From contig CAYUCE010000002.1 in the NCBI GenBank assembly GCA_964443275.1, positions 358 to 64,357 on the forward strand: DNA of 64,000 nt. The letters run 5' to 3'. Position 1 is the stretch's first letter. Each line of letters starts with the position of its first letter. The notes below the pieces were generated by a model, which was given only the letters and a program-made list of their open reading frames with translations, searched no databases and was not told the origin of the DNA. Both the position numbers and the translations under genes were made by a program. Shown here in pieces: positions 8,411-50,997 of this stretch. Origin of the DNA: an uncultured Thermotogae bacterium (GTDB lineage Bacteria > Bipolaricaulota > Bipolaricaulia > CAYUCE01).

Positions 8411-8573
8411 GTGGGAGGCAAATCCTACACAGAGTAGAATTATGTTTATAGACAGGGCTTTCTCTATTTAATACACTCCTAATTTTTTAAGTTTTGATAT
8501 AAACTTCTGCATCACTTTTTATAGCGAACCTTTGTTAAAGATACTATCCTGTCGACTGATCTTCCTAAAAGAT

Positions 8574-35405: not shown

Positions 35406-36722
35406 GTGACTAACTTTATTAACTTAAAAAACGAACTTCCCGGAAAGAAGTCACAAGAAATCGCCCAAAAGAGAAAGATGTATGTGACTCAAGCCGTGGG
35501 CAAACAATCGCTTTGCCCCGGTTATATTGCCAGTGGTGATGGCGCTTTAGTTACTGACGTAGACGGAAATACCTTTATCGATTTTACCGGGGGTTGGGGA
35601 TGTTTAATTGTGGGTCATACTCCAACCAGAGTAGTGAAAGCAATTAAAGAACAAGCTGAGAAATATCTTCACACGGACTTTTCAGCAGTTCCGTACGAAC
35701 CCTACGTCGAGCTTGCCGAGCGATTGGTTAAGCTGGCCCCCGGCGATTGGCCCAAAAAGGCGGCCTTTTTTAATAGTGGAGCAGAAGCGGTGGAAAATGC
35801 GGTAAAGATATCACGTGCTTACACCGGAAGGAAAGCAGTGATAGTATTCGAAAATGCCTTTCACGGCCGGACACTTCTAACTATGACCATGACCCACAAA
35901 GCCAAACCCTATAAGTACAAGTTTGGCCCATTTGCCTCCGATATCTACCGGCTACCCTATCCCAACTCCTATCGTTCTGATGGAAAATCAAAAGACTGGG
36001 AGCGGGAACTTACTTCTCTGGTCAATCCTGAAGAGGTGGCTTGCTTAGTAATAGAGCCCATACAAGGTGAAGGGGGGTTTTTAGTTCCTCCGGATGGATT
36101 CTTAAAACAATTACGGGATCTGTGTGACAAGTACGGTATCTTGTTTGTAGCAGATGAGATTCAAACCGGTATGGGCAGGACGGGGAAGATGTTTGCTATC
36201 CAACATTGGGACATCGAACCGGACATTATTACAGTAGCCAAATCGCTGGCTGCCGGGCTTCCTCTATCCGGGGTAATCGCCAAAAAAGAAGTCATCGATT
36301 CTCTTATCGAGGGAGCCATCGGAGGTACATATTGTGGAAATCCACTTGCCTGCCGGGCAGCCATCGAGGTCTTAAACCTTATCCAGGAAGAAAATCTCCT
36401 TTCACGAGCCGAAAAAATCGGCAAACAAATAAAGGAAAGATTTACTTCGATGAAGGAAAAGTACGAAATCATAGGCCATATACGGGGTATAGGAGCCATG
36501 GTGGGAATGGAATTTGTTAAAGATAGAGATACTAAGGAGCCTGCTTCAGAGGCTACTTCCCAGATCGTTAAAGATTGTGTTTCACATGGACTGCTTGTTC
36601 CCAGCTGCGGAATTTACAATAACGTAATCAGGTTGCTAGTGCCTTTGGTAATTACCGACTCCCAGCTAAGCGAGGGCCGTGACGTATTGGAAGATGCAGT
36701 CGCTAGAGTTGCAGGAATCTAA
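35406..36722 (+). CDS. Class-III PLP-dependent aminotransferase (GabT/ornithine/putrescine aminotransferase-like), copy A
   Basis: 438 aa. The Lys-PLP region is DEIQTGMGRTGKMFA. The central about 1.1 kb is near-identical to copy B at 48598..49917. Confidence 0.85.
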   Translation: MTNFINLKNELPGKKSQEIAQKRKMYVTQAVGKQSLCPGYIASGDGALVTDVDGNTFIDFTGGWGCLIVGHTPTRVVKAIKEQAEKYLHTDFSAVPYEPYVELAERLVKLAPGDWPKKAAFFNSGAEAVENAVKISRAYTGRKAVIVFENAFHGRTLLTMTMTHKAKPYKYKFGPFASDIYRLPYPNSYRSDGKSKDWERELTSLVNPEEVACLVIEPIQGEGGFLVPPDGFLKQLRDLCDKYGILFVADEIQTGMGRTGKMFAIQHWDIEPDIITVAKSLAAGLPLSGVIAKKEVIDSLIEGAIGGTYCGNPLACRAAIEVLNLIQEENLLSRAEKIGKQIKERFTSMKEKYEIIGHIRGIGAMVGMEFVKDRDTKEPASEATSQIVKDCVSHGLLVPSCGIYNNVIRLLVPLVITDSQLSEGRDVLEDAVARVAGI

Positions 36723-36966: not shown

Positions 36967-37878
36967 CTATTTTCTTCCGGAATCTAAATAACTATCGCCA
37001 TAAAAGATCTGGTGATCTTCCCAGAGCTGCTCCAGCTTCTCCAGATATTGTGTAGAGTCCTCCTTTAGCTTAAGGCTCAATGCTGTCCCGATGGCCCCGA
37101 TAAGACTGATAGGGGCAGTGAATGAATCAATGTACGAGAGAATACGACATTTCCCCAGTAACAAATGATCGGCATGTTCAGCCAGAGGAGAGAATTCACT
37201 ATCGGTGATGACCACTGTTGTTATGTCTTCTCGTTTAGCGGCCTGCAAACATTCCACAATCTCTCGGGAGTATCTGGGGAAGTTTAACCCGATAACCAAG
37301 CTGTTCTCCGACAAGCGGGCCAGTTCGCTATAGAAGACCATTGGGGTTGAGGTTATTGCTTTTACCCCATCTCGGACCCAGCGAAGAACTGTCTCCAAGT
37401 ATTCAGCTAAAGGGGAGAAGATCGTAAAAGCAACAATAACAATCTTATCGGCAGCCAGGATCTTTTCGATGACTTCTCCCACTTCTTCAAGGTCCAGGTT
37501 TTGCAAAGTATCTTCAAGGTTGTGAAGGTCAAGCAACAGGGTCTTCACTACCGGATTGGCCTTGTCTTTCACGTGGGGATGGTATTTCTTTAACCGGTTA
37601 ACGGTGGTGAGCTTGCGTTGTACCAGATCCTGAATCTTCTCCTGCAGTTCAGGATATCCTTCAAAACCACAATCCTTGGCAAATCGCACTACAGTGGATT
37701 CACTGACCTCTGTTATCTCTGCCAATTCAGCCGCAGTCATAAAGGCAACCTGGAGAAGATTGTCCAGTATAAACTTAGCGATTCTCCTCTTCTTACCCGA
37801 TAGCTCTCCCCTTTTTTCTCTTATGAGCGAATCTATATCTTTCAACTTTCCACCTTCCCTATTTAGTTGCAAGTTCAA
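36967..37878 (-). CDS. RpiR/MurR-family transcriptional regulator (HTH_6 plus SIS domain)
   Basis: ITEVSESTVVRFAKDCGFEGYPELQ is the HTH, followed by a SIS phosphosugar-binding fold. It is divergent from the ABC substrate-binding protein gene. Confidence 0.85.
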   Translation of the reverse strand: MNLQLNREGGKLKDIDSLIREKRGELSGKKRRIAKFILDNLLQVAFMTAAELAEITEVSESTVVRFAKDCGFEGYPELQEKIQDLVQRKLTTVNRLKKYHPHVKDKANPVVKTLLLDLHNLEDTLQNLDLEEVGEVIEKILAADKIVIVAFTIFSPLAEYLETVLRWVRDGVKAITSTPMVFYSELARLSENSLVIGLNFPRYSREIVECLQAAKREDITTVVITDSEFSPLAEHADHLLLGKCRILSYIDSFTAPISLIGAIGTALSLKLKEDSTQYLEKLEQLWEDHQIFYGDSYLDSGRK

Positions 37879-37970: not shown

Positions 37971-37999
37971 TTGACAGAAAAGTTGAATTATGTTATAAT
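37971..37999 (+). promoter_or_regulatory. Consensus sigma-70-type promoter TTGACA-17 nt-TATAAT driving the substrate-binding protein/permease operon
   Basis: Exact TTGACA at 37971-37976, a 17-nt spacer, and exact TATAAT at 37994-37999. It lies about 175 nt upstream of the ATG at 38176. Confidence 0.45.
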
Positions 38000-38175: not shown

Positions 38176-39750
38176 ATGGCAAAACGTCTAATCACATTTT
38201 TTGTGCTAATTAGTTTACTTGCATTCGCAAATTCTGTTGGTACGCCTCAGTCAGAAAAATATGGCGGAACGGTTCACTTCGGAATTTCCACAACACTTCC
38301 GTCGTTGAACCCCCTTAAAGGAGTAGCACCCTCAACTCGAGGTGGGACTCGGACTATTCTCACAGTTTATCGAGGCTTACTTGGATTTAATTCTGACAGT
38401 GAGTTAGTCCCTGAATTGGCAGAAAGTTACGAAACCTCAGATAATAAAACTTGGGGTTTTCGTCTGCGTGAAAACGCGAAATTTCATAATGGTGAACCGG
38501 TAATAGCCGAAGATGTTAAATTTACATTTGACTGGATTCGTGACCCTGATAATGGTGCTTTTGGCTATCAGTACTTAAAGAGAATTAAAAACACCACAAT
38601 AGTTGATAAGCATACCATAGAAATTGAACTTAAATCTCCAGATGCAACTTTTGCTTCACTGCTAACTCAAGCTTGCGCGGTTATTGTTTCAAAAGACTGG
38701 TGGCAAGATCCCGAAACTAATCCAGACATTGAAATGATGGGTGCAGGACCTTTTAAGTTTGAAGATTTAGTCGAAGGAGTAAAAGTTGTGACCAAGCGAT
38801 TTGACGATTTCTACAAAGAGGGGTTCCCGTACCTAGATAAGATGGTTGTTCACTTCTATCCCGATGAAGAAAGTAGAATTAATGCCTTGCTGGCTGGTGA
38901 TTTGGATATTATAGGTTATCCGCCTTGGAGATACATGAAGAAGATAGATGCTGACCCAAATTATGAATTGGAACTTGCCTCAGGCGTTTTAATGACCGTA
39001 GCTTTCAATCTAACGGTGGAACCTTGGACTAACATAAAAGTTCGAGAGGCCATCAGTTACGCTCTAAAACGCGATGACTACGTAGAAGGTGTTTTCTATG
39101 GCTATGCGGAGCCAATACGGGGCCCTTTGACACCTCCTGACATGAAACAGTGGTATCATGAGGGGCTAGCTGAGTTCTTTGAATACAATCCAGAAAAGGC
39201 AAAGAGACTACTTGCTGAGGCAGGTTATCCTGATGGCTTTAAGACAACAATCTTCTCAAACTATACATATGGGATGTACAAAAGAACCGCAGAAATTCTG
39301 CAAAGACAATTAAAAGAAGTGGGAATTGAAGGGGAACTTGAGCTAGTCGATTGGCCCGAGCAGGTAGAGAGATCCTGGAGCGGTAACTTTACAGGTCTAA
39401 AAGTAATAGGTACACTTTTCTTTTATCCAGATCCTGACTCTTATGTGACCACAATAGGTATTTCTGCAAAGCCTACGTTCGCATCATATGGTATAGAATC
39501 TGGAGATGTCAAAGTTCCGCTAATGAAACAAGCCCTAGAGGAAGCTCGAACTGCCGTAACAACAAAAAAAAGAGACGAATGGTATCGTGCATTCGAAGGA
39601 CTTTTCCTTGCTAAGTTTCTACAGATACCTCTCGTTGGTAGATATGATGGGACTGCTCTGAGTAAACGAGTTCAAAATTACGATCCTCCTTGTGGACAAC
39701 TCACCGGCTTTAGTGCTTTTGCACATGATTATATCTGGCTGGAACATTAA
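38176..39750 (+). CDS. ABC transporter substrate-binding protein, family 5 (peptide/nickel/opine type)
   Basis: Signal peptide, then an SBP_bac_5-like body. Length is 524 aa. Confidence 0.85.
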   Translation: MAKRLITFFVLISLLAFANSVGTPQSEKYGGTVHFGISTTLPSLNPLKGVAPSTRGGTRTILTVYRGLLGFNSDSELVPELAESYETSDNKTWGFRLRENAKFHNGEPVIAEDVKFTFDWIRDPDNGAFGYQYLKRIKNTTIVDKHTIEIELKSPDATFASLLTQACAVIVSKDWWQDPETNPDIEMMGAGPFKFEDLVEGVKVVTKRFDDFYKEGFPYLDKMVVHFYPDEESRINALLAGDLDIIGYPPWRYMKKIDADPNYELELASGVLMTVAFNLTVEPWTNIKVREAISYALKRDDYVEGVFYGYAEPIRGPLTPPDMKQWYHEGLAEFFEYNPEKAKRLLAEAGYPDGFKTTIFSNYTYGMYKRTAEILQRQLKEVGIEGELELVDWPEQVERSWSGNFTGLKVIGTLFFYPDPDSYVTTIGISAKPTFASYGIESGDVKVPLMKQALEEARTAVTTKKRDEWYRAFEGLFLAKFLQIPLVGRYDGTALSKRVQNYDPPCGQLTGFSAFAHDYIWLEH

Positions 39751-39837
39751 CAGGATTTCAAAAGGAAATATGCTTTAACACATGTGTAAACTTTGTACTT
39801 GATATTTTCGGAGCGGAAACTAGAAATAAATACACAT

Positions 39838-39870
39838 ATTCACAGGAGCTTTTCAAAAGCTCCTGTGAAT
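39838..39870. promoter_or_regulatory. Perfect 33-bp palindrome ATTCACAGGAGCTTTT-c-AAAAGCTCCTGTGAAT (intercistronic hairpin or operator)
   Basis: Two 16-nt perfectly complementary arms lie about 90 nt after the substrate-binding protein stop, inside a 430-nt gap before the permease gene. There is no downstream T-run. Confidence 0.35.
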
Positions 39871-40181
39871 ATGTCCTATCGCAAAATTCTTACTAGTGTG
39901 CGAGGCAGACTACTTCCACATTTACACATCGGACCAAAGGTTATTGTAAATACCATCTATACTATGCGGTATTTGACAAGATTACGTTGCCCATTGTTTC
40001 TGTATTCTTTTCTTAAAAGAAATAGATTTAAGAAATGCCAACCTCTGGTATTTTCACCTTTGGAAGGTCCGCTTTCCCAAGAGAAGTTAGCTTTTAAGCC
40101 ACGACTTGTAAGTAAAAAGGAAACCTGCAAAATTCGCTTAAAAATATAGCATTTACATTCGCAAAATGAGGCTGTGAAGCA

Positions 40182-41147
40182 ATGTCGATATATGCATTCA
40201 TAGTTAGACGTTTATTTGTAAGCTTCGGTACAATACTTATCATTACTGTTGTGGTATTTTCCTTTTTACACCTACTTCCTGGTGATCCCGCTCAGATGAT
40301 CCTCGGTGGTGGTACAGAAGGAGGCACTATAAATGAAGAGCAACTACAACGTATCAGACAGGAATTAAATTTAGATAAACCACTGCATATTCAATATTTT
40401 CTCTTTCTAAAAAACGCTCTCCAAGGTAATTTGGGGAAATCCTATTACAACGATCAGCCTGTTTCCAATGTGTTATTAATACGCTTCCAGAGATCATTCG
40501 AATTGGTCATATTGAGTTTTCTACTCGCGGTACCAGTTGGTATATCTCTTGGCGTATTAGCAGGCATACATAGTGGAAGATACCTTAGCACGATTATTGT
40601 TCTACTCTCTGTTTTAGGCATATCTCTTCCTGTTTACGTACTGGGTCCGCTTTTTATAAAAATATTTTCCTTGCAATTAAGTTGGCTGCCAACATCAGGA
40701 TATGTTCTCATAAGTGAGAGTACTGTGAAGCATATACAATCTCTTGTACTTCCGGTAACCACACTGTCTTTGGGCCTAATAGCAATGATTAGTAGAATAC
40801 AGCGATCAAGTCTTTTAGAAGTTCTCCACTCCGAATATATAACCACCGCAAGATCAAAAGGGCTTAATGAAGGGATAGTAATGACCAAACATGCGCTTCG
40901 GAATGCTGTAATCCCCGTTATCTCAATAGGTAGTGTACAATTAGCCCGTTTAGTAGGAGGGACTGTGGTTTTAGAAACCGTTTTTACCTACCCCGGATTA
41001 GGATTGCTACTGAAGGAATCTATTATGAGACGTGATCTACCTGTTATCCTAGGTATTGCACTTCTGGTTGGAATTACTTTTAGCATCATTAACTTACTCG
41101 TTGACTTGGCTTATTGTTTCTTGGATCCCAGGATTAGGTATGATTAA
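40182..41147 (+). CDS. ABC transporter permease (DppB/OppB-like), set 1
   Basis: 321 aa with six TM helices and the EAA-like loop region of the BPD_transp_1 family. Confidence 0.85.
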   Translation: MSIYAFIVRRLFVSFGTILIITVVVFSFLHLLPGDPAQMILGGGTEGGTINEEQLQRIRQELNLDKPLHIQYFLFLKNALQGNLGKSYYNDQPVSNVLLIRFQRSFELVILSFLLAVPVGISLGVLAGIHSGRYLSTIIVLLSVLGISLPVYVLGPLFIKIFSLQLSWLPTSGYVLISESTVKHIQSLVLPVTTLSLGLIAMISRIQRSSLLEVLHSEYITTARSKGLNEGIVMTKHALRNAVIPVISIGSVQLARLVGGTVVLETVFTYPGLGLLLKESIMRRDLPVILGIALLVGITFSIINLLVDLAYCFLDPRIRYD

Positions 41148-41997
41148 TCTTAAACAGGAATTATGCAATAAAATGAAACTTTTACGTGATTTCCGTGTTA
41201 CTATAAGCTCGATAATTATCCTCGCCTTGCTACTGTTATCTCTCTTGGCACCAGTTCTTCCAGTAAGAGATCCCTTTGAGATGAATTTCTCGAATATGTT
41301 AGAGGGACGAAGCAGCAGTTTTTTACTAGGTACAGACGAATACGGTCGTGATTTGTTAAGCAGGATACTATACGGCACAAGAGTAACCCTTTCAGTAGCT
41401 TTTGCAGCTACCACTATTGCGGCAATTCTTGGTTGCTTACTTGGTATATGTTCAGCATATTTTAGAGGATGGTCAGAAACATTCCTTATGCGAATTACAG
41501 AAGTTCTGGTATCATTTCCTCCCGTTTTACTGGCAATGATAGTGGTTGGACTTTGGGGACCGGGGATGAGAAATTTAATTCTAAGTATAGGAGTAATTCA
41601 TTCTCCTATGTTTGCCCGACTGAGCTACGGAGTAACCAAATCAGAGCGAGAGAGAGAGTACGTTAAAGCCAGCAAATCATTGGGAGCATCAAATACTTGG
41701 ATAATTGCTAAAGTGTTGTTACCCAACATCGCAGCACCTATCATTGTGCAATTTGCAGTCAACTTTGCTTGGGCAGCTCTTCTTGCTGGAGGCCTGAGTT
41801 TCCTTGGATTAGGGATCATTCCTCCCCGGCCTTCGCTTGGAAATATTCTTGCAGGTGCTCGCAGTTATATGGCCTTGAACTGGTCATATTTTCTCTGGCC
41901 TGCTGTTGTACTTGGCACTCTAATAACGGCTGTGAATATTTTAAGTGAAGGGTTGCGCGAAGCGCTGGATCCAAAGCAGCGGGGGTCAATTGTCTGA
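41140..41997 (+). CDS. ABC transporter permease (DppC/OppC-like), set 1
   Basis: Track ORF is 41056..41997. The likely start is the ATG at 41140, which overlaps the upstream stop. It has an OppC-type N-terminal domain and TM helices. Confidence 0.8.
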   Translation: MINLKQELCNKMKLLRDFRVTISSIIILALLLLSLLAPVLPVRDPFEMNFSNMLEGRSSSFLLGTDEYGRDLLSRILYGTRVTLSVAFAATTIAAILGCLLGICSAYFRGWSETFLMRITEVLVSFPPVLLAMIVVGLWGPGMRNLILSIGVIHSPMFARLSYGVTKSEREREYVKASKSLGASNTWIIAKVLLPNIAAPIIVQFAVNFAWAALLAGGLSFLGLGIIPPRPSLGNILAGARSYMALNWSYFLWPAVVLGTLITAVNILSEGLREALDPKQRGSIV

Positions 41998-42090
41998 TAA
42001 ATGCATAAAGGTAGATGCGTGGTATTTATAGATGTAGTGGGGAAAGCAGGCGAAGATTAGATATGAACGTAAAGATAAAAGGAGGTAGAC

Positions 42091-42771
42091 ATGCAAAATC
42101 TCAAGGAAAAACGAGGAGATCAAACCTACGAGACATATCAATCGATTTCAGTAGATTACATAAAAGGTGGATATCTTGATGGCACAATCGGCTTTGGAGC
42201 AAAGCCAGCAATTATTGTTATTGATTATCAAAAGGCGTTTACTACTTTTGAAGCGACTCTAGGCACAAGTGACTTAATCCAACAAGGAGTTGAAAATACA
42301 GCCATTCTTCTAAAAGAAGCTAGGAAAAAAGGAGTGCAGATTTTCTTTACCAATGTTGCCTGGAGAGAAGATAGGAAAGATTTTGGGATGTGGAAGGGTA
42401 AAATGACACAATGTCTAAAAGAGGCTACTTTGGGTACTTGGGGCGTAGAAGTAGATGACAGACTAAAAATGGAAGACGGCGATATTTTCTTCTACAAAAA
42501 GTGGCCCTCAGCTTTCCATGGCACGCCTCTCAGCACTTATTTAACCACAAAGGGAATTGATACTTTAATCGTAACTGGCTGCACCACCTCCGGATGTGTT
42601 AGGGGAACAATCTATGATTCTTTCTCTAGTGGTTTTAGAACCATCGTTCCTTATGGCTGCGTAGGTGACATAATTCAATCTGCACATGAGCAAAATCTTG
42701 CAGATATCCATAAGAGATATGCCGATGTTCTCCCATTAGAAAAGGTTATTACCTATATACGTGAGCTTTAG
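42091..42771 (+). CDS. Isochorismatase-family cysteine hydrolase (N-carbamoylsarcosine amidase / RutB-like)
   Basis: Catalytic-triad context IIVIDYQKAF ... LIVTGCTTSGCVRGTIYD. Length is 226 aa. Confidence 0.75.
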   Translation: MQNLKEKRGDQTYETYQSISVDYIKGGYLDGTIGFGAKPAIIVIDYQKAFTTFEATLGTSDLIQQGVENTAILLKEARKKGVQIFFTNVAWREDRKDFGMWKGKMTQCLKEATLGTWGVEVDDRLKMEDGDIFFYKKWPSAFHGTPLSTYLTTKGIDTLIVTGCTTSGCVRGTIYDSFSSGFRTIVPYGCVGDIIQSAHEQNLADIHKRYADVLPLEKVITYIREL

Positions 42772-42957
42772 TAATTTCTAGCAATTTCTCTGTAAAGATG
42801 TTTAAATCATGTCTTTGAATCCATGATTATAGTAAGAATATATAGAAGTTGAGAAGTGAGACAATAAGTTTTCGTAAAGGAAAGTCATGTATGATTATAC
42901 TTTTGCAGAATTTTTGCTTCCAACTGAGAATTTTAAGATCTAGCGAAAGGAATATTT

Positions 42958-44421
42958 ATGTATGGAGAAAGAAACTTCTTATCCTCTGAGCGGCCCTATC
43001 TCCGTGTTCTCTCAGAAAAACAGTTAGAGAATCTCCATTTTGCTTCTCTGCGCGTGCTGGAGAGAACGGGGATGATTTTTAACTCTTCTCAAGCTGTTGA
43101 CCTGCTTCTTTCGGCCGGTGGCCGAAGAGTTGAAGGAAATAGAATTTCGATTCCTTCTCATTTAATTGATAAATCTCTCAAGAGCGCGCCTAAGCAAATA
43201 AGGATTAGTGATCGAGAGGGTGATTCCATGATGCTCCTATCGGGCCACAATGTCTATTACGGTACTGGGTCCGATCTTCCTAGTGTCATTGATCCATATT
43301 CCGGTGAGAAGCGTGCCTCATTAGCAAAAGATGTGGGTAACTTCGCCAGGGTCTGTGACTATTTACCAAACATTGATTTTGTGATGTCTATGGCACTGGC
43401 TTCCGATCACCCTGTGGAAGTAGCCGATTTATATCATTTTTTACAGATGGTTAGCAATACGACGCTGCCCATACTCTTTACTGCTTCTAATCGTGAAAGT
43501 TTAGAATACATTTACCAAATGTGTCTGGCCATAAGGGGTAGCGAACAAGCATTGACAAAAGAGCCCTTTATAATTCACTATGCCGAACCTAGCAGTCCAC
43601 TACAGCATAGTAAAGATGCTGTTGACAAACTTCTTTTCTGCGCGAAGCACGGAATTCCGGTCACTTATCCATCCGGAACTTCTCTCGGAGTTACCGCCCC
43701 AGTCACTATCGCCGGTGCTATGGTTATGGCAAACGCAGAGTTTCTTGGTGGACTCGTTTTAAGTCAACTAACACAGGAAGGGGCTCCCATCATTTACGGT
43801 GGTGGGAATTCAGCGATGGATATGCGCACCATGGCGTATCTCTATGCAGCCCCCGAAAATTGGCTTAATGGAATGATAGTCCGGGAACTATCCTCCTACT
43901 ATAGGTTACCATGTTTTGGGGAAGGTGGCTGCGGTGATGCTAAGACCTTCGACCAACAAGCAAGTAGTGAGGCCACAAGCACATTGTTAGTTACTAGTCT
44001 GATTGGTACAAACCTTATACATGATGTGGGATACATCGAGTCAGGCAAGACAGGTTCCTATGGAATGCTTTTGCTATCTGATGACGTTATTGGACAAATT
44101 AAACGTTTTCTCCGTGGGGTCGAGGTATCGAATGAAACCCTAGCAGTAGAAGTATTAGACAGAGTTGGACCAGGAGGTAATTTTCTCACCGATCAACATA
44201 CTCTAAACCATTTTAAGGATTCAATTTATAATCCAAATTATTTTGATCGCCAAACCTTTAGTCAGTGGGTAAAACAAGGCAAAAAAGCACTTGGTCAAGT
44301 ATTGAACGAGAAAGCTAGATGGATTTTGGAAAATCATGAACCTAAACCTTTACCAGAAGGAGTTAAGCAGAAGATAAATACCATCATTCAAAAAGCCGAG
44401 GAACAAAGGGAAAGAACGTAA
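42958..44421 (+). CDS. MttB-superfamily (trimethylamine/quaternary-amine:corrinoid methyltransferase-like) protein, non-pyrrolysine
   Basis: The N-terminus LSEKQLENLHFASLRVLERTGMIF matches the family start. The core GIPVTYPSGTSLGVTAPVTIAGAMVMANAEFLGGLVLSQLT...YGGGNS...DAK...VSNETLAVEVLDRVGPGGNFL aligns along MttB/MtgB. A Cys/Gly sits at the position of the UAG/Pyl residue of true MttB. No corrinoid protein or RamA-like activase is in the window. Confidence 0.7.
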   Translation: MYGERNFLSSERPYLRVLSEKQLENLHFASLRVLERTGMIFNSSQAVDLLLSAGGRRVEGNRISIPSHLIDKSLKSAPKQIRISDREGDSMMLLSGHNVYYGTGSDLPSVIDPYSGEKRASLAKDVGNFARVCDYLPNIDFVMSMALASDHPVEVADLYHFLQMVSNTTLPILFTASNRESLEYIYQMCLAIRGSEQALTKEPFIIHYAEPSSPLQHSKDAVDKLLFCAKHGIPVTYPSGTSLGVTAPVTIAGAMVMANAEFLGGLVLSQLTQEGAPIIYGGGNSAMDMRTMAYLYAAPENWLNGMIVRELSSYYRLPCFGEGGCGDAKTFDQQASSEATSTLLVTSLIGTNLIHDVGYIESGKTGSYGMLLLSDDVIGQIKRFLRGVEVSNETLAVEVLDRVGPGGNFLTDQHTLNHFKDSIYNPNYFDRQTFSQWVKQGKKALGQVLNEKARWILENHEPKPLPEGVKQKINTIIQKAEEQRERT

Positions 44422-44467
44422 TAACATTCTTGTATGATTTTGTGAACAACTAAAAGGAGGATATAAA

Positions 44468-45451
44468 TTGGAAAATGCTTTTGATTTTGTGAAACTTCAT
44501 GCAGGTTGGGATGAGTGTATATTGATTTTTGGGGAGCAATTGCCCAAAGGTGAAGAGCTTAACATTAGCTTATCTCTATTAAAGAAACCAAGCATTGGTG
44601 GAACGGAGGTTGGAATCCTCTATCCTCCTAACGATTCAGGGGATATCAGGGTTAAGATAGTTGATGCTACCAGCAATAGCTATATACGAATGTGTGGAGG
44701 ACTCACACAATCTTTAGGAAAAGCCATTGTTGAAACCAATATCGGTGAAAAGCTAGGGATAACGATACCTGATGGAACGCAAGAAGTCCTATTAGAAACA
44801 GATGCCGGGCTTATTCCCATTGAAATCGAGGTTCAAAATCACATCACCCGGAAGGTAGTCACTAAAATGGATTCTTACCTTACTGATTGTTATGAACGTG
44901 GAGTTGAGTTGGAAAAACTAGATGGAATGTCCGTGGTAGATGTCGGTATTAATGAGGAAGAAAAGGAGTTTTTGGTTATCGATATTGAAGAGCTATCGAG
45001 ACGGTTCTCTAAAGTTAATTTTTTTAAGAGGGAAGAGGCTGCTCTGAATATCTTAGAAGAGGTTTACCGCAAGTTTCTCAGTTCACGCGAAATGTCTTTG
45101 AAATATTTATATGGTGCCCTATATCAGCTTAAAGAGTCAGGGGCAGAAAAGAGGATTCAAACTGTATTCCGCTTCTTTCCATGGGATTATTCACCAGGGG
45201 ATAATTTGGAGTTCGCTTGCGGTACTGGGACAATAGCCATTGGTATCGCCATGTATGAGCGCGGACAGATAGATTTTTCTGATGGAACTGAAAACTTATT
45301 TTTAACCGTTGGTGGAAAACACCTTCCCTCAGGAACAAGAGCGAAAACTCACTTACAACTGGAGGGTACGAAGCAGGGGATAACAAGTGCCCGATTTAGC
45401 CATGACCGTATTGAAATAGTAGCCAGTGGCAAGATCTACATTACTGCATGA
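44468..45451 (+). CDS. DapF-fold PLP-independent amino-acid racemase/epimerase family protein
   Basis: N-terminal FDFVKLHAGWDECILIF matches DapF FSKMHGLGNDFMVV. Two catalytic-Cys motifs are present: RMCGGLTQS and EFACGTGTIAIGIA. The second matches the SPCGTGTSA motif of proline racemase. Confidence 0.5.
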   Translation: MENAFDFVKLHAGWDECILIFGEQLPKGEELNISLSLLKKPSIGGTEVGILYPPNDSGDIRVKIVDATSNSYIRMCGGLTQSLGKAIVETNIGEKLGITIPDGTQEVLLETDAGLIPIEIEVQNHITRKVVTKMDSYLTDCYERGVELEKLDGMSVVDVGINEEEKEFLVIDIEELSRRFSKVNFFKREEAALNILEEVYRKFLSSREMSLKYLYGALYQLKESGAEKRIQTVFRFFPWDYSPGDNLEFACGTGTIAIGIAMYERGQIDFSDGTENLFLTVGGKHLPSGTRAKTHLQLEGTKQGITSARFSHDRIEIVASGKIYITA

Positions 45452-45577
45452 TTTTTCCCTCTAGACGCTGCTAAGACTGAGTTAGTAGCATGGCTATTAA
45501 CAAATCCGAAATAAATATTAGTAGAAAGAAACGATGCTCAGTAACTGCTAGAGCGATAGCAAAGTGTAGGTGATCAA

Positions 45578-46504
45578 ATGGGGATCACCCAATATTTCAT
45601 AAGACGTTTACTGTTAATCATTCCAGTAATACTGGTGGTTTCAGTAGTTAATTTCTCGATGCTCCATTTGGCCCCAGGTGATCCTGTACGGGTAATGGTT
45701 AACCCTCGAATGGGTGAGGAGGCCATTCAACAAAAACGCAAAGAGTTGGGATTGGACAAACCACTCTTTATTCAATATTTGAACTTTATGAAGAGGATAA
45801 TTACAGGCAACCTGGGACGCTCAATCTACACCAGGGAGCGTATCGAAGCTATGATACTGCGGCGTCTATCAAACACATTAATCTTGGGAATCACTGCTCT
45901 CACTCTGGCTTTTCTTATTGCAATACCTTTTGGTACTTTGGCTGCGAAATACCGTGGAAGGTTACTAGATTACGCTTCTATGTTTGCAGCCCTTGTTGGC
46001 CTTTCTATGCCCCAATTTTGGCTGGGGCTAGTACTAATGCTGGTGTTTGCAATAAAACTTGGGTGGTTCCCAGTGGCTGGTTACGGAGACTTAAGACATC
46101 TTGTGCTTCCCGCTATCACCCTTGCTGCATATTTTACAGGTCTTATGACCCGATTGAACCGTTCTAGCTTGCTGGAAGTGATGGGAAAAGACTACATGTT
46201 TACCGCCCGAGCCAAGGGACTTTCTGAGGTAACTGTGCTTTTCAAACACGGACTGCGTAACTCTTTGACTACCGTAATTTCCTTCTTGGGATTACAGGTT
46301 GGCTGGCTAGTAGGGGGAGCGGTAATGGTGGAATTCGTTTTTAATAGGCCGGGGTTGGGAAGATTGATCGTACAATCCCTTTATCGGCGGGATTATCCGG
46401 TAATACAGATTCTTTTACTTATTCTGGTTACCTCAGTTATATTGGGAAATTTACTAGCCGATCTATGCTATGCAACGGTCAACCCAAAAATTAGATATAA
46501 ATAG
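45578..46504 (+). CDS. ABC transporter permease (DppB/OppB-like), set 2
   Basis: 308 aa paralog of the set 1 permease, with six TM helices. Confidence 0.85.
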   Translation: MGITQYFIRRLLLIIPVILVVSVVNFSMLHLAPGDPVRVMVNPRMGEEAIQQKRKELGLDKPLFIQYLNFMKRIITGNLGRSIYTRERIEAMILRRLSNTLILGITALTLAFLIAIPFGTLAAKYRGRLLDYASMFAALVGLSMPQFWLGLVLMLVFAIKLGWFPVAGYGDLRHLVLPAITLAAYFTGLMTRLNRSSLLEVMGKDYMFTARAKGLSEVTVLFKHGLRNSLTTVISFLGLQVGWLVGGAVMVEFVFNRPGLGRLIVQSLYRRDYPVIQILLLILVTSVILGNLLADLCYATVNPKIRYK

Positions 46505-46515
46505 GGTCAGTTGCC

Positions 46516-47334
46516 ATGCGAGTACTTAAACATAAGCAGATAATTTTTGGAGGCGGGGTAATACTGGTCTTTTGCACGATAGCGATACTCGCTCCTTATA
46601 TTATCCCTTATCACTATTGGGAGCAGGATTTAATGGAGTCCCTACACGAGCCTAGTGGAGAGCACTTCTTTGGTACGGATAATTTCGGGCGTGATGTCTT
46701 TAGCCGAGTTGTTTATGGAACACGAATATCACTTATTTCCGCGCTGGGAGCTGCAGGAGTTGCTTCTATAGTGGGATTAACTCTGGGGTTGTTGGCCGGT
46801 TATTTAGGAGGAGCGGTGGATCGAGTTGTCCAAACGGCAATTGACGTATCCTGGTCGTTCCCCACAGTACTATTGGCTATTTTGATTGCATCAGTAGCAA
46901 GCCCGGGATTGAGCTCCACTATTATCGCCATTGCAGCCGTGTATTGGGCACAATATGCGCGGGTAATCCGGGGAGAGGTTTTATCAGTAAGGGAGGAAGA
47001 GTACGTACACGCCGCCAAGAGTATCGGCTGTACGGAGGTCAGGGTAATGGCTCGCCATGTGTTTCCCAACGTGGTCCCCCCGATGATAGTGATGATAAGT
47101 ATCACCATGGGATACGCTATATTACTAGAAGCAATGCTAAGTTTTTTAGGTGTCGGAGTTCAACCTCCCACTCCTAGTTGGGGAATCGTTCTCTCCGAAG
47201 GGCGTGATTTTCTGACCAGAGCCCCCTGGATAACCCTCTTTCCAGGCATGATCATTTCCCTAGCCGTTCTAGCTTTCAATTTCCTTGGTGATGGACTGAG
47301 GGATTACCTCGATCCATATATGAAGCGGATATGA
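46516..47334 (+). CDS. ABC transporter permease (DppC/OppC-like), set 2
   Basis: 272 aa with an OppC-type TM arrangement. Confidence 0.85.
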   Translation: MRVLKHKQIIFGGGVILVFCTIAILAPYIIPYHYWEQDLMESLHEPSGEHFFGTDNFGRDVFSRVVYGTRISLISALGAAGVASIVGLTLGLLAGYLGGAVDRVVQTAIDVSWSFPTVLLAILIASVASPGLSSTIIAIAAVYWAQYARVIRGEVLSVREEEYVHAAKSIGCTEVRVMARHVFPNVVPPMIVMISITMGYAILLEAMLSFLGVGVQPPTPSWGIVLSEGRDFLTRAPWITLFPGMIISLAVLAFNFLGDGLRDYLDPYMKRI

Positions 47335-47571: not shown

Positions 47572-48504
47572 ATGAAAAACAGAATGAAAGGTAGAGATTT
47601 TTTAACTTTAATGGATTACACTAAAGAGGAGATAACCTGGATTTTAGAGTGCGCAGATGAATTAAAACGTTCTTGGGCTAAGGGTGAACCTCATGAATAT
47701 CTTAGGGGAAAAACTGTTGCCGCTCTGTTTGAGAAGCAGTCCACCAGAACCCGTACCTCCTTTCAAGCTGGAATGGCTCATTTAGGAGGTCAAAGCTTCT
47801 ATATGAGACCTGATGAGCTTCAGCTAGGACGTGGGGAGCCCATTAAGGACACAGCTAGAGTAATTGATCGCTACTGTGATGCCCTGTTTATTAGAACTTA
47901 TGGACAGGAGATAGCGGAGGAGTTTGCAGAGTACATGAAAAATCCGGTTATCAACGCCTTGACCAATTTAACTCATCCTTGCCAGGGGCTTGCGGATCTT
48001 TTAACTATTAAGGAAAAAAAGGGAGGATTTAAAGATCTAAAGTTAGCTTACACGGGCGCTGTCTCTAACGTATGTCATAGCCTCATGATAGGAGGAACCA
48101 TTATGGGGATAGATGTTTACGTGGCTAGACCAGAAGGTTATGATCCTGACCCCCGCCCGTTAAAATTTGCTGAAGAGAAGGCCAAAGGCTCGGGGAAAAA
48201 TCTTATTGTTACAGATGATCTAAACGAAGCAGTAAACAACGCGGATATAGTTTATGCCGATGCTTGGCATGCTATGGGAACTAAGGATAAGGAGCAAAAA
48301 GAAGAGAATTTTTTGCCTTTTCAGATAAATGAAGAAGTGTTAGCCCTGGCAAAAGATGACTTTATCTTTATGCATTGCCTGCCTGCATATAGAGGGAAAG
48401 AGGTAACTGAGATGGTAATCGAAGGTCCGCATTCAGTGGTTTGGGATCAAGCGGAAAATAGGATGCACACGGAGAAGGCGATATTAGCGTTGCTTGTTCA
48501 ATAA
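47572..48504 (+). CDS. Carbamoyltransferase of the OTC/ATC family (ornithine or putrescine carbamoyltransferase, catabolic context)
   Basis: STRTR motif (FEKQSTRTRTSFQAG) for carbamoyl-phosphate binding, plus HPCQ and HCLP motifs. Length is 310 aa. Confidence 0.85.
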   Translation: MKNRMKGRDFLTLMDYTKEEITWILECADELKRSWAKGEPHEYLRGKTVAALFEKQSTRTRTSFQAGMAHLGGQSFYMRPDELQLGRGEPIKDTARVIDRYCDALFIRTYGQEIAEEFAEYMKNPVINALTNLTHPCQGLADLLTIKEKKGGFKDLKLAYTGAVSNVCHSLMIGGTIMGIDVYVARPEGYDPDPRPLKFAEEKAKGSGKNLIVTDDLNEAVNNADIVYADAWHAMGTKDKEQKEENFLPFQINEEVLALAKDDFIFMHCLPAYRGKEVTEMVIEGPHSVVWDQAENRMHTEKAILALLVQ

Positions 48505-48597: not shown

Positions 48598-49917
48598 ATG
48601 TCTACTCGACCTAGTTTTATCTCTTTTAGCACCTGTTCCCCTGGCCCAAAGTCAAAGGAAATTGCCAAGAAGAGAGAGAGGTTTGTAACTAATGCATTGG
48701 GCAGGCAATCTCTTTGTCCCGGTTATATTGCCAGTGGTGATGGCGCTTTGGTCACCGACATAGACGGAAATACCTTTATCGATTTTACCGGGGGTTGGGG
48801 ATGTTTAATCGTCGGTCATACTCCAACCAGAGTAGTGAAAGCAATTAAAGAACAAGCTGAGAAATATCTTCACACGGACTTTTCAGCAGTTCCGTACGAA
48901 CCCTACGTCGAGCTTGCCGAGCGATTGGTTAAGCTGGCCCCCGGCGATTGGCCCAAAAAGGCGGCCTTTTTTAATAGTGGAGCAGAAGCGGTGGAAAATG
49001 CGGTAAAGATATCACGTGCTTACACCGGAAGGAAAGCAGTGATAGTATTCGAAAATGCCTTTCACGGCCGGACACTTCTAACTATGACCATGACCCACAA
49101 AGCCAAACCCTATAAGTACAAGTTTGGCCCATTTGCCTCCGATATCTACCGGCTACCCTATCCCAACTCCTATCGTTCTGATGGAAAATCAAAAGACTGG
49201 GAGCGGGAACTTACTTCTCTGGTCAATCCTGAAGAGGTGGCTTGCTTAGTAATAGAGCCCATACAAGGTGAAGGGGGGTTTTTAGTTCCTCCGGATGGAT
49301 TCTTAAAACAATTACGGGATCTGTGTGACAAGTACGGTATCTTGTTTGTAGCAGATGAGATTCAAACCGGTATGGGCAGGACGGGGAAGATGTTTGCTAT
49401 CCAACATTGGGACATCGAACCGGACATTATTACAGTAGCCAAATCGCTGGCTGCCGGGCTTCCTCTATCCGGGGTAATCGCCAAAAAAGAAGTCATCGAT
49501 TCTCTTATCGAGGGAGCCATCGGAGGTACATATTGTGGAAATCCACTTGCCTGCCGGGCAGCCATCGAGGTCTTAAACCTTATCCAGGAAGAAAATCTCC
49601 TTTCACGAGCCGAAAAAATCGGCAAACAAATAAAGGAAAGATTTACTTCGATGAAGGAAAAGTACGAAATCATAGGCCATATACGGGGTATAGGAGCCAT
49701 GGTGGGAATGGAATTTGTTAAAGATAGAGATACTAAGGAGCCTGCTTCAGAGGCTACTTCCCAGATCGTTAAAGATTGTGTTTCACATGGACTGCTTGTT
49801 CCCAGCTGCGGAATTTACAATAACGTAATCAGATTACTGGTGCCTTTGGTAATTACCGACTCCCAGCTAAGCGAGGGCTTGGACGTGTTAGAGGAGGCGA
49901 TCTCCAGTATTGCTTAA
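48598..49917 (+). CDS. Class-III PLP-dependent aminotransferase, copy B
   Basis: 439 aa. Identical to copy A between QSLCPGYIASGDG and VITDSQLSEG. The termini are divergent. Confidence 0.85.
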   Translation: MSTRPSFISFSTCSPGPKSKEIAKKRERFVTNALGRQSLCPGYIASGDGALVTDIDGNTFIDFTGGWGCLIVGHTPTRVVKAIKEQAEKYLHTDFSAVPYEPYVELAERLVKLAPGDWPKKAAFFNSGAEAVENAVKISRAYTGRKAVIVFENAFHGRTLLTMTMTHKAKPYKYKFGPFASDIYRLPYPNSYRSDGKSKDWERELTSLVNPEEVACLVIEPIQGEGGFLVPPDGFLKQLRDLCDKYGILFVADEIQTGMGRTGKMFAIQHWDIEPDIITVAKSLAAGLPLSGVIAKKEVIDSLIEGAIGGTYCGNPLACRAAIEVLNLIQEENLLSRAEKIGKQIKERFTSMKEKYEIIGHIRGIGAMVGMEFVKDRDTKEPASEATSQIVKDCVSHGLLVPSCGIYNNVIRLLVPLVITDSQLSEGLDVLEEAISSIA

Positions 49918-50037
49918 CTCAGCACCAAACGTAGAAGTCTCCGGTTGGGCACAGAGGCCCAACCATATGACCCTATAGGTACGACCAAACGTAGGGAATG
50001 GCCTCTGTGCCATTCCGAAACCGCGCTAGTAACTACT

Positions 50038-50997
50038 ATGGCAAATAAAAATAAGGCTCAAGATAGGATAGTGATAGCTGTAGGAGGAAATGCCATCCTT
50101 AAGCCCGATCAACCGTGGTCGGCTAAAAGGCAACTGGACAATATAAAGACTACCTGCAAGCAACTGGGAGAGATAATCATAAAGGATGGATACCAACCAG
50201 TCCTCACCTACGGAAACGGCCCCCAGGTAGGCAACATCCTTCTTCAAAACGAAATTGCCAAACAGAAAGTTTCGCCGATGCCTCTGGATATTTGCGGAGC
50301 CCAGAGCCAGGGGCTTTTGGGTTATCTGCTAAGTAAGGAACTAAGAGGTGTTTTGGAAGAAAACGGCTTGCGAGATTTTCAAGTGATCTCGGTGATAACC
50401 CAAACTTTGGTAAGCTCAGATGATCCCGCCTTCACCAATCCCACCAAACCTATTGGTCCTTTCTACTCCCGAAAGGAAGCTGAAAAGCTAAAAAAAGAGA
50501 GAGGTTATCAAATTACCCAAGATGCTAACCGCGGTTGGCGTCGGGTGGTCCCCTCCCCCGATCCCATAACAATTGTGGAAAGTCCGGTGATAAAGCATCT
50601 GGTGGATAAAAAAGTCATAGTCATTGCTTCCGGTGGAGGAGGTGTACCGGTTACCAAAGAAGATGGGCAACTTATAGGTAAAGAAGCAGTTATAGATAAA
50701 GACCTGGCTGCCTGTAAGTTAGCTTGTGACATCAAAGCCAGAACCCTGCTTATTTTAACCGATGTCCAGCAGGTGATGCTCGATTACGGCACCAGCAAGG
50801 CGAGGGGAATCGAGCGGATGAACCTAGAGGAAGCAAGAAAATATCTGGATGAGGGCCACTTCGCCGCAGGCAGCATGAAACCCAAAGTAAAAGCCTGTAT
50901 TAAATTCGTTGAAAATGGCGGTCAAAAAGCGATAATTACTTCTTTGGATAAAGCCATACAAGGACTTTCCGGAAAAGCTGGTACCACTATTTATTAA
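50038..50997 (+). CDS. arcC: Carbamate kinase
   Basis: Likely start is MANKNKAQDRIVIAVGGNAIL at 50038; the track ORF begins at 49945. Carbamate-kinase/amino-acid-kinase fold, 319 aa. Confidence 0.8.
   Translation: MANKNKAQDRIVIAVGGNAILKPDQPWSAKRQLDNIKTTCKQLGEIIIKDGYQPVLTYGNGPQVGNILLQNEIAKQKVSPMPLDICGAQSQGLLGYLLSKELRGVLEENGLRDFQVISVITQTLVSSDDPAFTNPTKPIGPFYSRKEAEKLKKERGYQITQDANRGWRRVVPSPDPITIVESPVIKHLVDKKVIVIASGGGGVPVTKEDGQLIGKEAVIDKDLAACKLACDIKARTLLILTDVQQVMLDYGTSKARGIERMNLEEARKYLDEGHFAAGSMKPKVKACIKFVENGGQKAIITSLDKAIQGLSGKAGTTIY

Follow-up and report, generated by a model that had tools for sequence, protein, structure and literature searches.

The gene under study, here called RAC, lies in a window of 64 kb, the whole stretch of DNA that was analyzed. 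The features of the locus are the following:

34633-35391, IclR regulator, found with aminotransferase copy a
35406..36722, + strand, class-III (GabT-like) aminotransferase, copy a
36967..37878, - strand, RpiR/MurR-family regulator (HTH_6 + SIS), divergent from the operon
37971..37999, + strand, perfect sigma-70 consensus promoter-like site (TTGACA-17-TATAAT, extended TG)
38176..39750, + strand, family-5 (Dpp/Opp/opine-type) ABC substrate-binding protein, first gene of the operon (PF00496, 297 bits)
39834..39874, no strand assigned, 19-bp perfect hairpin just 3' of the substrate-binding protein gene
40182..41147, + strand, ABC permease of the DppB/OppB type, first pair (similar to the second-pair permease; PF00528/PF19300)
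41056..41997, + strand, ABC permease of the DppC/OppC type, first pair
42091..42771, + strand, isochorismatase-family amidase, most like N-carbamoylsarcosine amidohydrolase (PF00857, 111 bits)
42958..44421, + strand, MttB-superfamily protein without pyrrolysine (PF06253, 302 bits over residues 8-482, full-length)
44468..45451, + strand, RAC, putative Cys-Cys racemase/epimerase of the DapF/ProR fold superfamily (homology, Cys pair)
45578..46504, + strand, ABC permease of the DppB/OppB type, second pair, directly 3' of RAC (PF00528, 140 bits; PF19300)
46516..47334, + strand, ABC permease of the DppC/OppC type, second pair (PF00528, 119 bits; PF12911)
47572..48504, + strand, ornithine carbamoyltransferase (OTC; TIGR00658, 393, cutoff 281)
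48598..49917, + strand, class-III (GabT-like) aminotransferase, copy b (TIGR00700, 524, cutoff 506.65; PDB matches PuuE/GabT, E=1e-123)
49945..50997, + strand, carbamate kinase (TIGR00746, 403, cutoff 358)

RAC is thus flanked by the MttB-like gene and by transporter permeases, as the first-pass annotation had noted, at distances of 46 nt and 126 nt, respectively. The promoter-like site is located upstream of the gene for the substrate-binding protein, divergent from the RpiR gene; it is a consensus match only, and the total of such sites does not exceed the shuffled expectation. The hairpin that follows the first gene is probably an intra-operon attenuator or mRNA stabilizer, and a 118-aa ORF that overlaps it (39793-40149) matches no Pfam family and is probably spurious. 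The true start of the first DppC/OppC-type permease is probably an internal ATG near 41140-41173. Several of these genes recur with RAC in relatives, including the family-5 substrate-binding protein, the RpiR regulator (41-42% identical, with the MttB-RAC pair in loci L004, L010 and L076) and the permease directly 3' of RAC, which is 73% identical to that of the L062 cluster. The two aminotransferase copies are 94.7% identical to each other and represent a duplication; in the closest relatives the clusters begin with an orthologue of copy a (AT3, 63-66% identical). The clusters of relatives lack OTC and carbamate kinase, which possibly form a separate downstream unit that leads from citrulline/carbamoyl-phosphate to ATP. 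Ornithine-, lysine- and GABA-type products would suit the GabT-like aminotransferase and the OTC/carbamate kinase pair equally well.

The RAC ORF encodes 327 amino acids from a TTG start, with a strong Shine-Dalgarno sequence (aaaggagg) 7 nt 5' of it, to a TGA stop, and its homologues begin at the same residue. A search returned 77 homologues with E values down to 2e-140, so the ORF is a real gene and not a chance reading frame. Both catalytic Cys motifs that the first-pass annotation had reported are present: R-M-C76-G-G-L-T-Q (Cys codon 44693-44695) and F-A-C251-G-T-G-T (Cys codon 45218-45220). Neither Cys is lost upon alignment; both are invariant across 48 sequences, and the pair is conserved in about 100 dereplicated loci with the exception of L056, a masked or truncated locus, and L136, which carries a CATGT variant. 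The DapF-like N-terminal strand is likewise found, as DFVKLHAGWDE, which resembles the 'HGLGND' strand of DapF.

The protein displays the DapF-like fold, in which two similar alpha/beta domains enclose an active site at their interface and each domain supplies one catalytic residue, at the N-terminal end of a helix. C76 and C251 align with the catalytic Cys pair of the solved proline racemase 7pb3, and the alignment to the histidine racemase HisR covers the second Cys only (HisR C209). The two-base Cys/Cys pair of the DapF, ProR, HypE and HisR type is therefore found at homologous positions in RAC; the residue-level alignment to DapF is reliable only at the two Cys motifs and the N-terminal strand. 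A different activity of the same fold, either a dehydratase resembling trans-3-hydroxy-L-proline dehydratase or an isomerase resembling PhzF, PrpF or LigU, appears improbable in the light of this pair. The 3-hydroxyproline dehydratase 6r76 has Thr (T-G-T-G) at the position of the second Cys, whereas both Cys residues are invariant in the RAC family. PhzF, PrpF and LigU employ Glu or Lys bases, that of LigU being K66 according to its description.

Scores against curated models place RAC outside the named families. The protein obtains 15.6 bits with PF01678 (cutoff 34.7), 13.2 bits with the DapF model TIGR00652 (cutoff 114.65), 25.3 bits with PF05544 (gathering score 27) and 24.6 bits with the ProR model NF010576 (cutoff 556). 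All four are below cutoff, in agreement with the earlier view that RAC has diverged from both canonical DapF and proline racemase, and no confident match to a true DapF emerges. The motifs M-C-G-H and D-R-S-P-C-G-T-G of ProR are missing and are replaced by M-C-G-G-L-T-Q and L-E-F-A-C-G-T-G; a precomputed PF05544 match exists for about half of the homologues and is lacking in the remainder. Judged by its sequence, RAC is neither DapF nor an orthodox proline racemase but a member of a small, unnamed and uncharacterized family, which lies somewhat closer to the branch of proline racemases than to DapF but belongs to neither. The family comprises approximately 74 representatives at E<1e-30 among the 1.84 billion searched, in every case from anaerobic MAGs or metagenomes. 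The closest match among species representatives is 61% identical and comes from a Spirochaetota MAG, and a single exact copy was found, on a 5.4-kb Logan contig from SRR7048218.

These boundaries bear directly on the possibility that RAC is a housekeeping diaminopimelate epimerase or a Stickland-type proline racemase (PrdF). The MCGG and ACGTG motifs and the N-terminal strand are DapF-like, Pro_racemase is the best Pfam match, and one family member is automatically annotated as 'diaminopimelate epimerase' in IMG. We nevertheless reject both assignments on the curated model scores, as TIGR00652, NF010576 and PF05544 all remain below their cutoffs. No prd or D-proline reductase genes are found near RAC, which is located inside a catabolic/transport operon, and a housekeeping role does not suit a family that is tiny and confined to scattered anaerobes. 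We consider this identity extremely improbable.

The partner gene encodes a full-length member of the MttB superfamily that scores below the cutoff of TIGR02369 (425.6, cutoff 525). Its ORF is uninterrupted and has no in-frame UAG, so it is not a pyrrolysine-dependent MttB; in the alignment to MttB (7xcl) and MtgB (2qne), Cys325 occupies the pyrrolysine (Pyl) position within GEGGCGDAK. The glycine betaine ligands of MtgB are Y97, R312, H348 and F356 (PMC13080624). According to the 2qne alignment, with a numbering offset derived by hand, the MttB-like protein keeps only the His of these four residues, the others being changed to Ser (Y97), Phe (R312) and Gly (F356). All characterized members without pyrrolysine are known to act on quaternary amines, and none is known to act on secondary N-methyl amines (PMC13080624). 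Searches of the 64-kb window by tblastn with seeds from relatives and by Pfam scans detected no corrinoid protein, no Pterin_bind/MT2 gene, no activase and no second MttB gene. The Rfam search is empty across the whole window and thus offers no riboswitch, for B12 or otherwise, in support of a corrinoid-dependent reaction. As the corrinoid protein, the Pterin_bind/MT2 gene and the activase are absent within the 64 kb, we assume that the MttB-like protein transfers methyl groups. The protein is a probable corrinoid-dependent N-demethylase partner of RAC.

A comparison of loci reveals that the association of the two genes is conserved. MttB-family genes peak at the positions directly flanking RAC family members. 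In the target subclade (at least 40% identity to RAC) an MttB gene is found at offset -1 in 7 of 18 loci and at +1 in 7 of 16, and within three genes on either side in 12 of the 17 loci with enough context. The distant clade has MttB at the ±1 positions in 7/76 and 6/78 loci, and beyond ±4 on the same contigs the count falls to 0-3 per offset; its members occur in varied contexts, many of them with no MttB nearby. In several RAC loci genes for a corrinoid protein and for a Pterin_bind methyltransferase are found as well. The divergence of RAC parallels that of its adjacent MttB (Spearman rho 0.61, p=0.004, n=20), and nearly all MttBs linked to the subclade have Cys at the Pyl position. The link between RAC and MttB recurs across phyla and is not a local accident. 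Our literature search for MttB in combination with a racemase, an epimerase or a proline racemase gave no relevant result, and no characterized MttB member with an adjacent racemase was found there.

Tight adjacency, with the two genes overlapping in some relatives (by 20 nt in L004), and co-divergence could also be expected if RAC were a catalytically irrelevant accessory partner of the MttB-like protein, such as a structural subunit or a factor for substrate delivery. In about 100 sequences, however, the Cys pair is invariant together with the motifs that bind the carboxylate and the amine, which indicates selection on catalysis, and many members of the RAC family lack the MttB neighbour altogether. 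An accessory role is accordingly very unlikely.

The presumed site of the substrate alpha-amine is remodelled. Asn18 and Glu206 of HisR and Asn11/13 of DapF touch the substrate alpha-amine (PMC11602996, PMC12039745); RAC residue 15 aligns with HisR Asn18, and E248 with HisR Glu206. The family consensus at positions 14-15 is G-N and that of the target subclade [W/F]-D. The substrate-amine Asn of DapF and HisR is thereby replaced by Asp, beside a new Trp. From this alignment D15 and E248 are predicted to be the alpha-amine ligands of RAC, and the subclade-specific change is in keeping with an amine that is methylated, bulkier and more cationic.

Further neighbours provide hints to the substrate. 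A flavoenzyme of the N-methyl-L-Trp-oxidase/MSOX type is located directly 5' of RAC in L065-type loci (322 bits, cutoff 257), a saccharopine-DH-like gene occupies position -1 in 16 of 76 distant-clade loci, and OCD/mu-crystallin and Ldh_2 genes are also among the neighbours in relatives. The amidase of the window has CSHases as its best PDB matches (26st, E=3.6e-40; 1nba, E=2.2e-32), and no NCBIfam equivalog reaches its cutoff. In close relatives the slot 5' of the MttB-RAC pair holds M20 (ArgE/DapE-like) or FmdA/AmdA amidases. That three amidase families with no relationship to each other fill this slot argues for the prior cleavage of a small amide or ureido bond. These recurrent neighbours of RAC all act on N-substituted amino acids. 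Taken together they suggest as substrate an amino acid that is N-alkylated, with an N-methyl group or a cyclic secondary amine, which overlaps the ring compound suggested earlier.

The same neighbourhood can be read in another way, namely that RAC racemizes an ordinary, unmethylated downstream amino acid (ornithine, lysine, 2,4-diaminobutyrate, proline or pipecolate) for D- or L-specific enzymes (the aminotransferase, the OTC side or D-amino-acid routes), and that the MttB link reflects a shared pathway and not a shared substrate. OTC, the GabT-like aminotransferase and carbamate kinase adjoin RAC in the window, and the neighbours in relatives belong to lysine, ornithine and proline metabolism (saccharopine-DH-like, OCD, Ldh_2, an ArgE/DapE-type deacylase, a LysW-like fusion, a D-aminoacyl-tRNA deacylase and, by eye, a sequence resembling class-IV aminotransferases). 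DapF, PddB and HisR are, moreover, known racemases of the DapF fold for diamino or basic amino acids. This reading leaves unexplained the MttB peak exactly at the adjacent position, the co-divergence with a dedicated Cys-type MttB clade and the subclade-specific changes of Asn to Asp and Gly to Trp at the alpha-amine site; in addition, OTC and carbamate kinase do not accompany RAC in relatives. We regard it as a serious but unlikely candidate. If it were correct, RAC would still represent a new racemase family, of more modest interest.

The explanation that we favour, with slightly better than even confidence, is that RAC is a PLP-independent two-base (Cys76/Cys251) racemase/epimerase that is paired with the MttB-like demethylase and acts on an N-methylated amino acid, either a secondary amine or a betaine, or on the product of its demethylation. 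Fold, catalytic residues and context together support the first-pass proposal of a DapF-fold racemase/epimerase that would invert the pathway substrate. As anticipated from the fold family, one thiolate would take the C-alpha proton and the other thiol would re-protonate from the opposite face, with the alpha-carboxylate resting on the N-terminal ends of two helices, one behind each Cys (C-G-G, C-G-T), and the alpha-amine held by residue 15 and Glu248. In the corresponding pathway, whose order of steps we infer, the Dpp/Opp-type ABC system would import an amide- or carbamoyl-linked N-methylated amino acid, and the N-carbamoylsarcosine-amidohydrolase-like amidase would release the N-methyl amino acid from this N-carbamoyl or amide precursor. 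RAC would then interconvert the D and L forms of the N-methyl amino acid, or of its demethylated product, allowing the stereospecific MttB-like demethylase and the GabT-like aminotransferase to use all of the substrate. The MttB-like enzyme is assumed to hand the methyl group to a corrinoid protein whose gene lies elsewhere.

None of the specific substrates that we considered suits all of the genes. Creatinine and N-carbamoylsarcosine would yield sarcosine, which is achiral and would leave a racemase without a task; the real substrate is thus one other than N-carbamoylsarcosine. Dipeptides of the anserine/carnosine type suit M20 and GabT, but neither the isochorismatase nor the FmdA amidases, derivatives of N-epsilon-trimethyllysine or ornithine do not fit all genes, and proline or hydroxyproline betaine needs no amidase.

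Non-pyrrolysine MttB homologues number in the thousands in anaerobes and, to our knowledge, only few of their substrates are known: glycine betaine, proline betaine, carnitine, gamma-butyrobetaine and choline-related compounds. The consistent position of RAC next to one MttB clade, with which it co-diverges, implies that the substrate of this clade is a chiral alpha-amino-acid derivative. Such a constraint narrows the search for MttB substrates greatly and is directly testable. The data suggest that the anaerobic degradation of N-methylated amino acids includes an unrecognized stereo-inversion step. If this is true, cofactor-independent racemases gain a new substrate class, of biocatalytic interest for D- and N-methyl-amino acids, and the turnover of methylated amines in anoxic sediments gains a stereochemical step relevant to methane and acetate precursors.

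A comparison with known systems reveals differences from each of them. RAC is 13-17% identical to the family of proline racemase, 4-hydroxyproline 2-epimerase and 3-hydroxyproline dehydratase (PF05544; 7pb3, 1w61, 4lb0, 4k7g, 6r76, 6j7c). It has M-C-G-G-L-T-Q in place of M-C-G-H and E-x-x-C in place of D-R-S-P-C, it contains a DapF/HisR-like N-terminal 'H-x-G-x-[ND]-E' strand that falls outside the ProR alignment, and its genomic partner is MttB and not prd or hyp genes. With respect to DapF, HisR (the histidine racemase of F. nucleatum), CntK and PddB (2,4-diaminobutyrate racemase), RAC is approximately 40-50 residues longer, the alpha-amine Asn is replaced in its subclade by Asp preceded by Trp, and its operon is catabolic instead of biosynthetic. 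In H. influenzae DapF, the second end of DAP is bound by Asn64, Asn157, Asn190 and Arg209.

The partner gene resembles the non-pyrrolysine MttB superfamily (MtgB, MtpB, MtcB, MtyB) in its full-length PF06253 match and the lack of an in-frame UAG, but differs in the Cys at the Pyl position and the loss of three of the four glycine betaine ligands of MtgB. As in this superfamily, the MttB-RAC pairs of relatives adjoin corrinoid proteins and Pterin_bind methyltransferases. HpbD, a proline betaine racemase and 4-hydroxyproline betaine 2-epimerase, lies beside N-demethylases and transporters and renders both stereoisomers usable (PMC3950512). By analogy, we propose HpbD as a functional counterpart of RAC in a catabolic cluster for N-methylated amino acids. 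Fold and mechanism are unrelated, as HpbD belongs to the Mg-dependent enolase superfamily and RAC would use a Cys-Cys two-base pair; the Hpb pathway is, furthermore, aerobic with Rieske and flavin demethylases, whereas RAC is paired with an MttB of the anaerobic corrinoid type. It is tentatively conceivable, at clearly less than even confidence, that RAC and the Cys-type MttB clade constitute the anaerobic corrinoid-dependent counterpart of the Hpb pathway, that RAC is the first racemase/epimerase of the DapF fold to be specialized for N-methylated amino acids or amino-acid betaines, and that this clade demethylates chiral N-methyl amino acids, possibly secondary amines. MttB chemistry would then extend beyond quaternary amines, and RAC would serve as a genomic marker by which a set of MttB paralogues could be de-orphaned in sediment anaerobes, among them Bathyarchaeia, Bipolaricaulota and Spirochaetota.

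The gene under study, RAC, lies directly downstream of an MttB-like gene (42958-44421, + strand):

44468-45451, + strand, RAC, a 327-aa open reading frame with a TTG start

A strong Shine-Dalgarno sequence (aaaggagg) is found 7 nt upstream of the TTG codon. The first-pass annotation had placed RAC between the MttB-like gene and transporter permeases, an arrangement confirmed by gaps of 46 nt to the former and 126 nt to the two Dpp/Opp-type permease genes that follow. The two cysteine motifs it reported (R-M-C76-G-G-L-T-Q and F-A-C251-G-T-G-T) and the DapF-like N-terminal strand (DFVKLHAGWDE) are present, and the claimed divergence from canonical DapF and proline racemase (ProR) holds, the protein scoring below the cutoff in all curated models tried: 25.3 bits with PF05544 Pro_racemase (gathering score 27), 15.6 with PF01678 DAP_epimerase (cutoff 34.7), 24.6 with the NCBIfam ProR equivalog (cutoff 556) and 13.2 with TIGR00652 DapF (cutoff 114.65). 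A search of PDB sequences gave only weak matches to ProR-like proteins (E about 5e-4), which became stronger with a family profile (about 1e-6); HisR, CntK and DapF ranked lower. AlphaFold, run on a 48-sequence alignment, gave a confident model (pLDDT 93.4, pTM 0.92).

A word-index search retrieved 77 homologues, nearly all unnamed and metagenomic; one family member had been annotated automatically as 'diaminopimelate epimerase'. When 1.84 billion cluster representatives were searched with a profile, only 74 reached E<1e-30, past which the scores fall steeply to about 55 bits, among ProR- or DapF-sized proteins. Because the curated models failed, homologues are few and the score drop is sharp, RAC represents a small, well-bounded and uncharacterised family within a known superfamily. 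Its members occur in metagenome-assembled genomes (MAGs) of Bathyarchaeia, Bipolaricaulota/Acetothermia, Spirochaetota, Thermotogae, Synergistaceae, Syntrophomonadaceae, Deltaproteobacteria and Chloroflexota, and in sediment, peat and wetland metagenomes; the closest of the MAG members, from Spirochaetota, is 61% identical. Elsewhere, the window carries housekeeping genes of a diderm bacterium (DnaE, enolase, tRNA synthetases, UvrC, LptFG).

Residues C76, G77, G78, T80, Q81, C251, G252 and G254 are invariant in the 48-sequence alignment, and E16, E110, T111, E248 and H312 nearly so. The careful alignment proposed earlier to look for loss of a catalytic cysteine thus found neither lost, and both motifs are kept across about 100 dereplicated loci. 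C76 and C251 align to the catalytic cysteines of proline racemase in the solved structure 7pb3, and in the model a helix begins right after each of them, the same arrangement as in DapF and ProR. A Cys/Cys pair is the signature of racemases and epimerases of this fold, whereas the 3-hydroxyproline dehydratase 6r76 has a threonine at the position of C251; the chemistry is, therefore, most likely a two-base stereoinversion at the alpha-carbon, as judged from the sequence.

Within the family, the presumed amine site varies. In the alignment of the family profile to HisR, RAC position 15 lies opposite Asn18 and E248 opposite Glu206, the alpha-amine ligands proposed for HisR (PMC11602996); in DapF the equivalent asparagine (Asn13 in Anabaena, Asn11 in H. 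influenzae) forms a hydrogen bond with the alpha-amine at the reacting centre (PMC12039745). H-M-G-G-N-E is found at the N-terminal strand in most family members. In the subclade of RAC (homologues with at least 40% identity) this is replaced by H-A-G-[W/F]-D-E, together with an 'FRFxP' insertion. The Asn-to-Asp change beside a new aromatic residue would suit a bulkier, more cationic N-methylated amine.

We further surveyed the genome context of RAC at 145 loci, or 102 after dereplication (19 in its subclade, 83 in a distant clade). Within the subclade an MttB-family gene occupies position -1 in 7 of 18 loci and +1 in 7 of 16, and lies at most three genes away in 12 of the 17 loci with enough context; the others are mostly on short contigs, and one of them (L074) has a transposase-like ORF beside RAC. 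The peak at ±1 recurs in the distant clade (7/76 and 6/78), where MttB is rare past ±4 on the same contigs (0-3 per offset) and many members lack an MttB gene nearby. In subclade loci L010, L064/L072, L067, L070 and L073, RAC is accompanied by both a corrinoid protein and a Pterin_bind methyltransferase. The MttBs linked to subclade RACs form two related paralogue groups (motifs FGEGGC[GA]DAK and FGTAGCSDAK), nearly all with cysteine at the pyrrolysine-aligned position, and they diverge in step with RAC (Spearman rho 0.61, p=0.004, n=20). In the window's MttB-like protein this residue is Cys325, where MtgB has leucine; of the four glycine-betaine ligands of MtgB (PMC13080624), only the histidine is kept. 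In the literature searched, no paper was found that connects MttB genes with racemases or epimerases of this type or that describes the conserved MttB-RAC partnership. Reading RAC as a putative DapF-fold racemase/epimerase in an MttB context is supported.

Two loci show unusual forms of the gene. On a 3.68-Mb contig (L007), a shorter family member of 285 aa lies around 8001-8858 among genes for pyrrolysine synthesis and tRNA charging (a possible PylB of the radical-SAM type, PylC-like and PylD-like proteins, and a class-II tRNA synthetase, possibly PylS), with a split dimethylamine methyltransferase gene and MttB genes. At L068 (2989-3960 and upstream), RAC comes as two neighbouring fragments with 66% and 54% identity to the protein of the window, which could reflect a frameshift or a tandem duplication.

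The recurrent neighbours other than MttB have a chemical theme in common, namely N-substituted amino acids. The isochorismatase-family amidase of the window (42091-42771, + strand) is nearest to N-carbamoylsarcosine amidohydrolase (PDB 26st, E=3.6e-40; 1nba, E=2.2e-32). Immediately before MttB-RAC, where the window has this amidase, the closest relatives carry an ArgE/DapE-type M20 deacylase (L062, L063) or an FmdA/AmdA amidase (L002), a non-orthologous replacement implying that cleavage of a small amide or ureido bond has to come first. These relatives share a Dpp/Opp-type substrate-binding protein with permeases and a GabT-like class-III aminotransferase; that of the window scores above the cutoff of TIGR00700 and reaches E=1e-123 against PuuE/GabT structures. 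L065-type loci carry, directly upstream of RAC, an FAD enzyme of the monomeric sarcosine-oxidase family that passes the cutoff as N-methyl-L-tryptophan oxidase and, downstream, an OCD/mu-crystallin protein and a D-aminoacyl-tRNA deacylase; L004-type loci carry an Ldh_2 family dehydrogenase and a 2-hydroxyacid dehydrogenase. The commonest partner in the distant clade is a saccharopine-dehydrogenase-like protein (-1 in 16/76), without an NCBIfam match at E<=1e-5, often near an Asp/Glu-racemase-like protein, with a class-IV-aminotransferase-looking sequence also found. This set looks like a second, uncharacterised D-/N-alkyl-amino-acid pathway. Amidohydro_3 occurs in the distant clade as well. 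The saccharopine-dehydrogenase-like gene stands at -1 in L037, L039, L047, L052, L054, L057, L058 and other Synergistaceae/Thermovirgaceae loci, and also in Bipolaricaulota and unbinned ones. In five loci, including L031 and L042 (Syntrophomonadaceae/Bacillota), the gene directly upstream encodes a small LysW-like zinc ribbon fused to a ferredoxin-thioredoxin-reductase catalytic chain.

Consensus scans, the sole basis of the promoter, hairpin and terminator calls, gave two features around the substrate-binding protein gene (38176-39750, + strand):

37971-37999, perfect sigma-70 consensus (TTGACA-17-TATAAT with TG), upstream of the substrate-binding protein gene and divergent from an RpiR regulator
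39834-39874, 19-bp perfect inverted repeat/hairpin, right after the substrate-binding protein gene

The hairpin is overlapped by a 118-aa ORF (39793-40149) that matches no Pfam family and is probably not a gene. The scan found no terminator-like sites between the amidase, MttB-like, RAC and permease genes, and the window has no Rfam elements. After a 237-nt gap follow ornithine carbamoyltransferase (OTC; 47572-48504, + strand), a second aminotransferase copy and carbamate kinase, which may form a separate citrulline/carbamoyl-phosphate module, since they are missing from the relatives' clusters. The two class-III GabT-like aminotransferases (35406-36722 and 48598-49917; 94.7% protein identity) are direct repeats about 1.3 kb long and some 12 kb from one another, bracketing the segment from RpiR through MttB-RAC to OTC, which points to a recent duplication or to a cassette prone to recombination. 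The transport genes (38176-47334) comprise one substrate-binding protein and two pairs of permeases (identity from pair to pair about 40% and 35%), with no ABC ATPase gene there or in the L062 and L063 clusters; the sole nearby one (51018-51728, minus strand) appears part of adjoining FtsX/MacB-LolA-like genes. Further on, an 888-aa ORF (56277-58943) has no Pfam match at E<=0.001 and is followed by a PRiA4_ORF3-like protein (59512-60177).

In the working we propose, the Dpp/Opp-type ABC system would bring in an amide- or carbamoyl-linked N-methylated amino acid, which the amidase would hydrolyse. RAC would convert between D and L enantiomers, whether of the N-methyl amino acid, of its betaine or of the product left after demethylation; the MttB-like enzyme would demethylate stereospecifically, passing the methyl group to a corrinoid protein encoded elsewhere, and the GabT-like aminotransferase would deaminate the product. 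N-carbamoylsarcosine as the amidase substrate would be a weak point, the product sarcosine being achiral. Further weak points are the window's lack of corrinoid and MT2 genes, the many distant RACs without MttB and the use, to our knowledge, of quaternary amines by characterised non-pyrrolysine MttBs. That RAC is an ordinary ornithine, lysine or proline racemase is a serious rival. For the logic of a RAC-MttB scheme, the aerobic Hpb pathway serves as precedent: HpbD, a proline-betaine racemase/hydroxyproline-betaine epimerase of the enolase superfamily, is encoded beside N-demethylases and permits growth on both enantiomers (PMC3950512).
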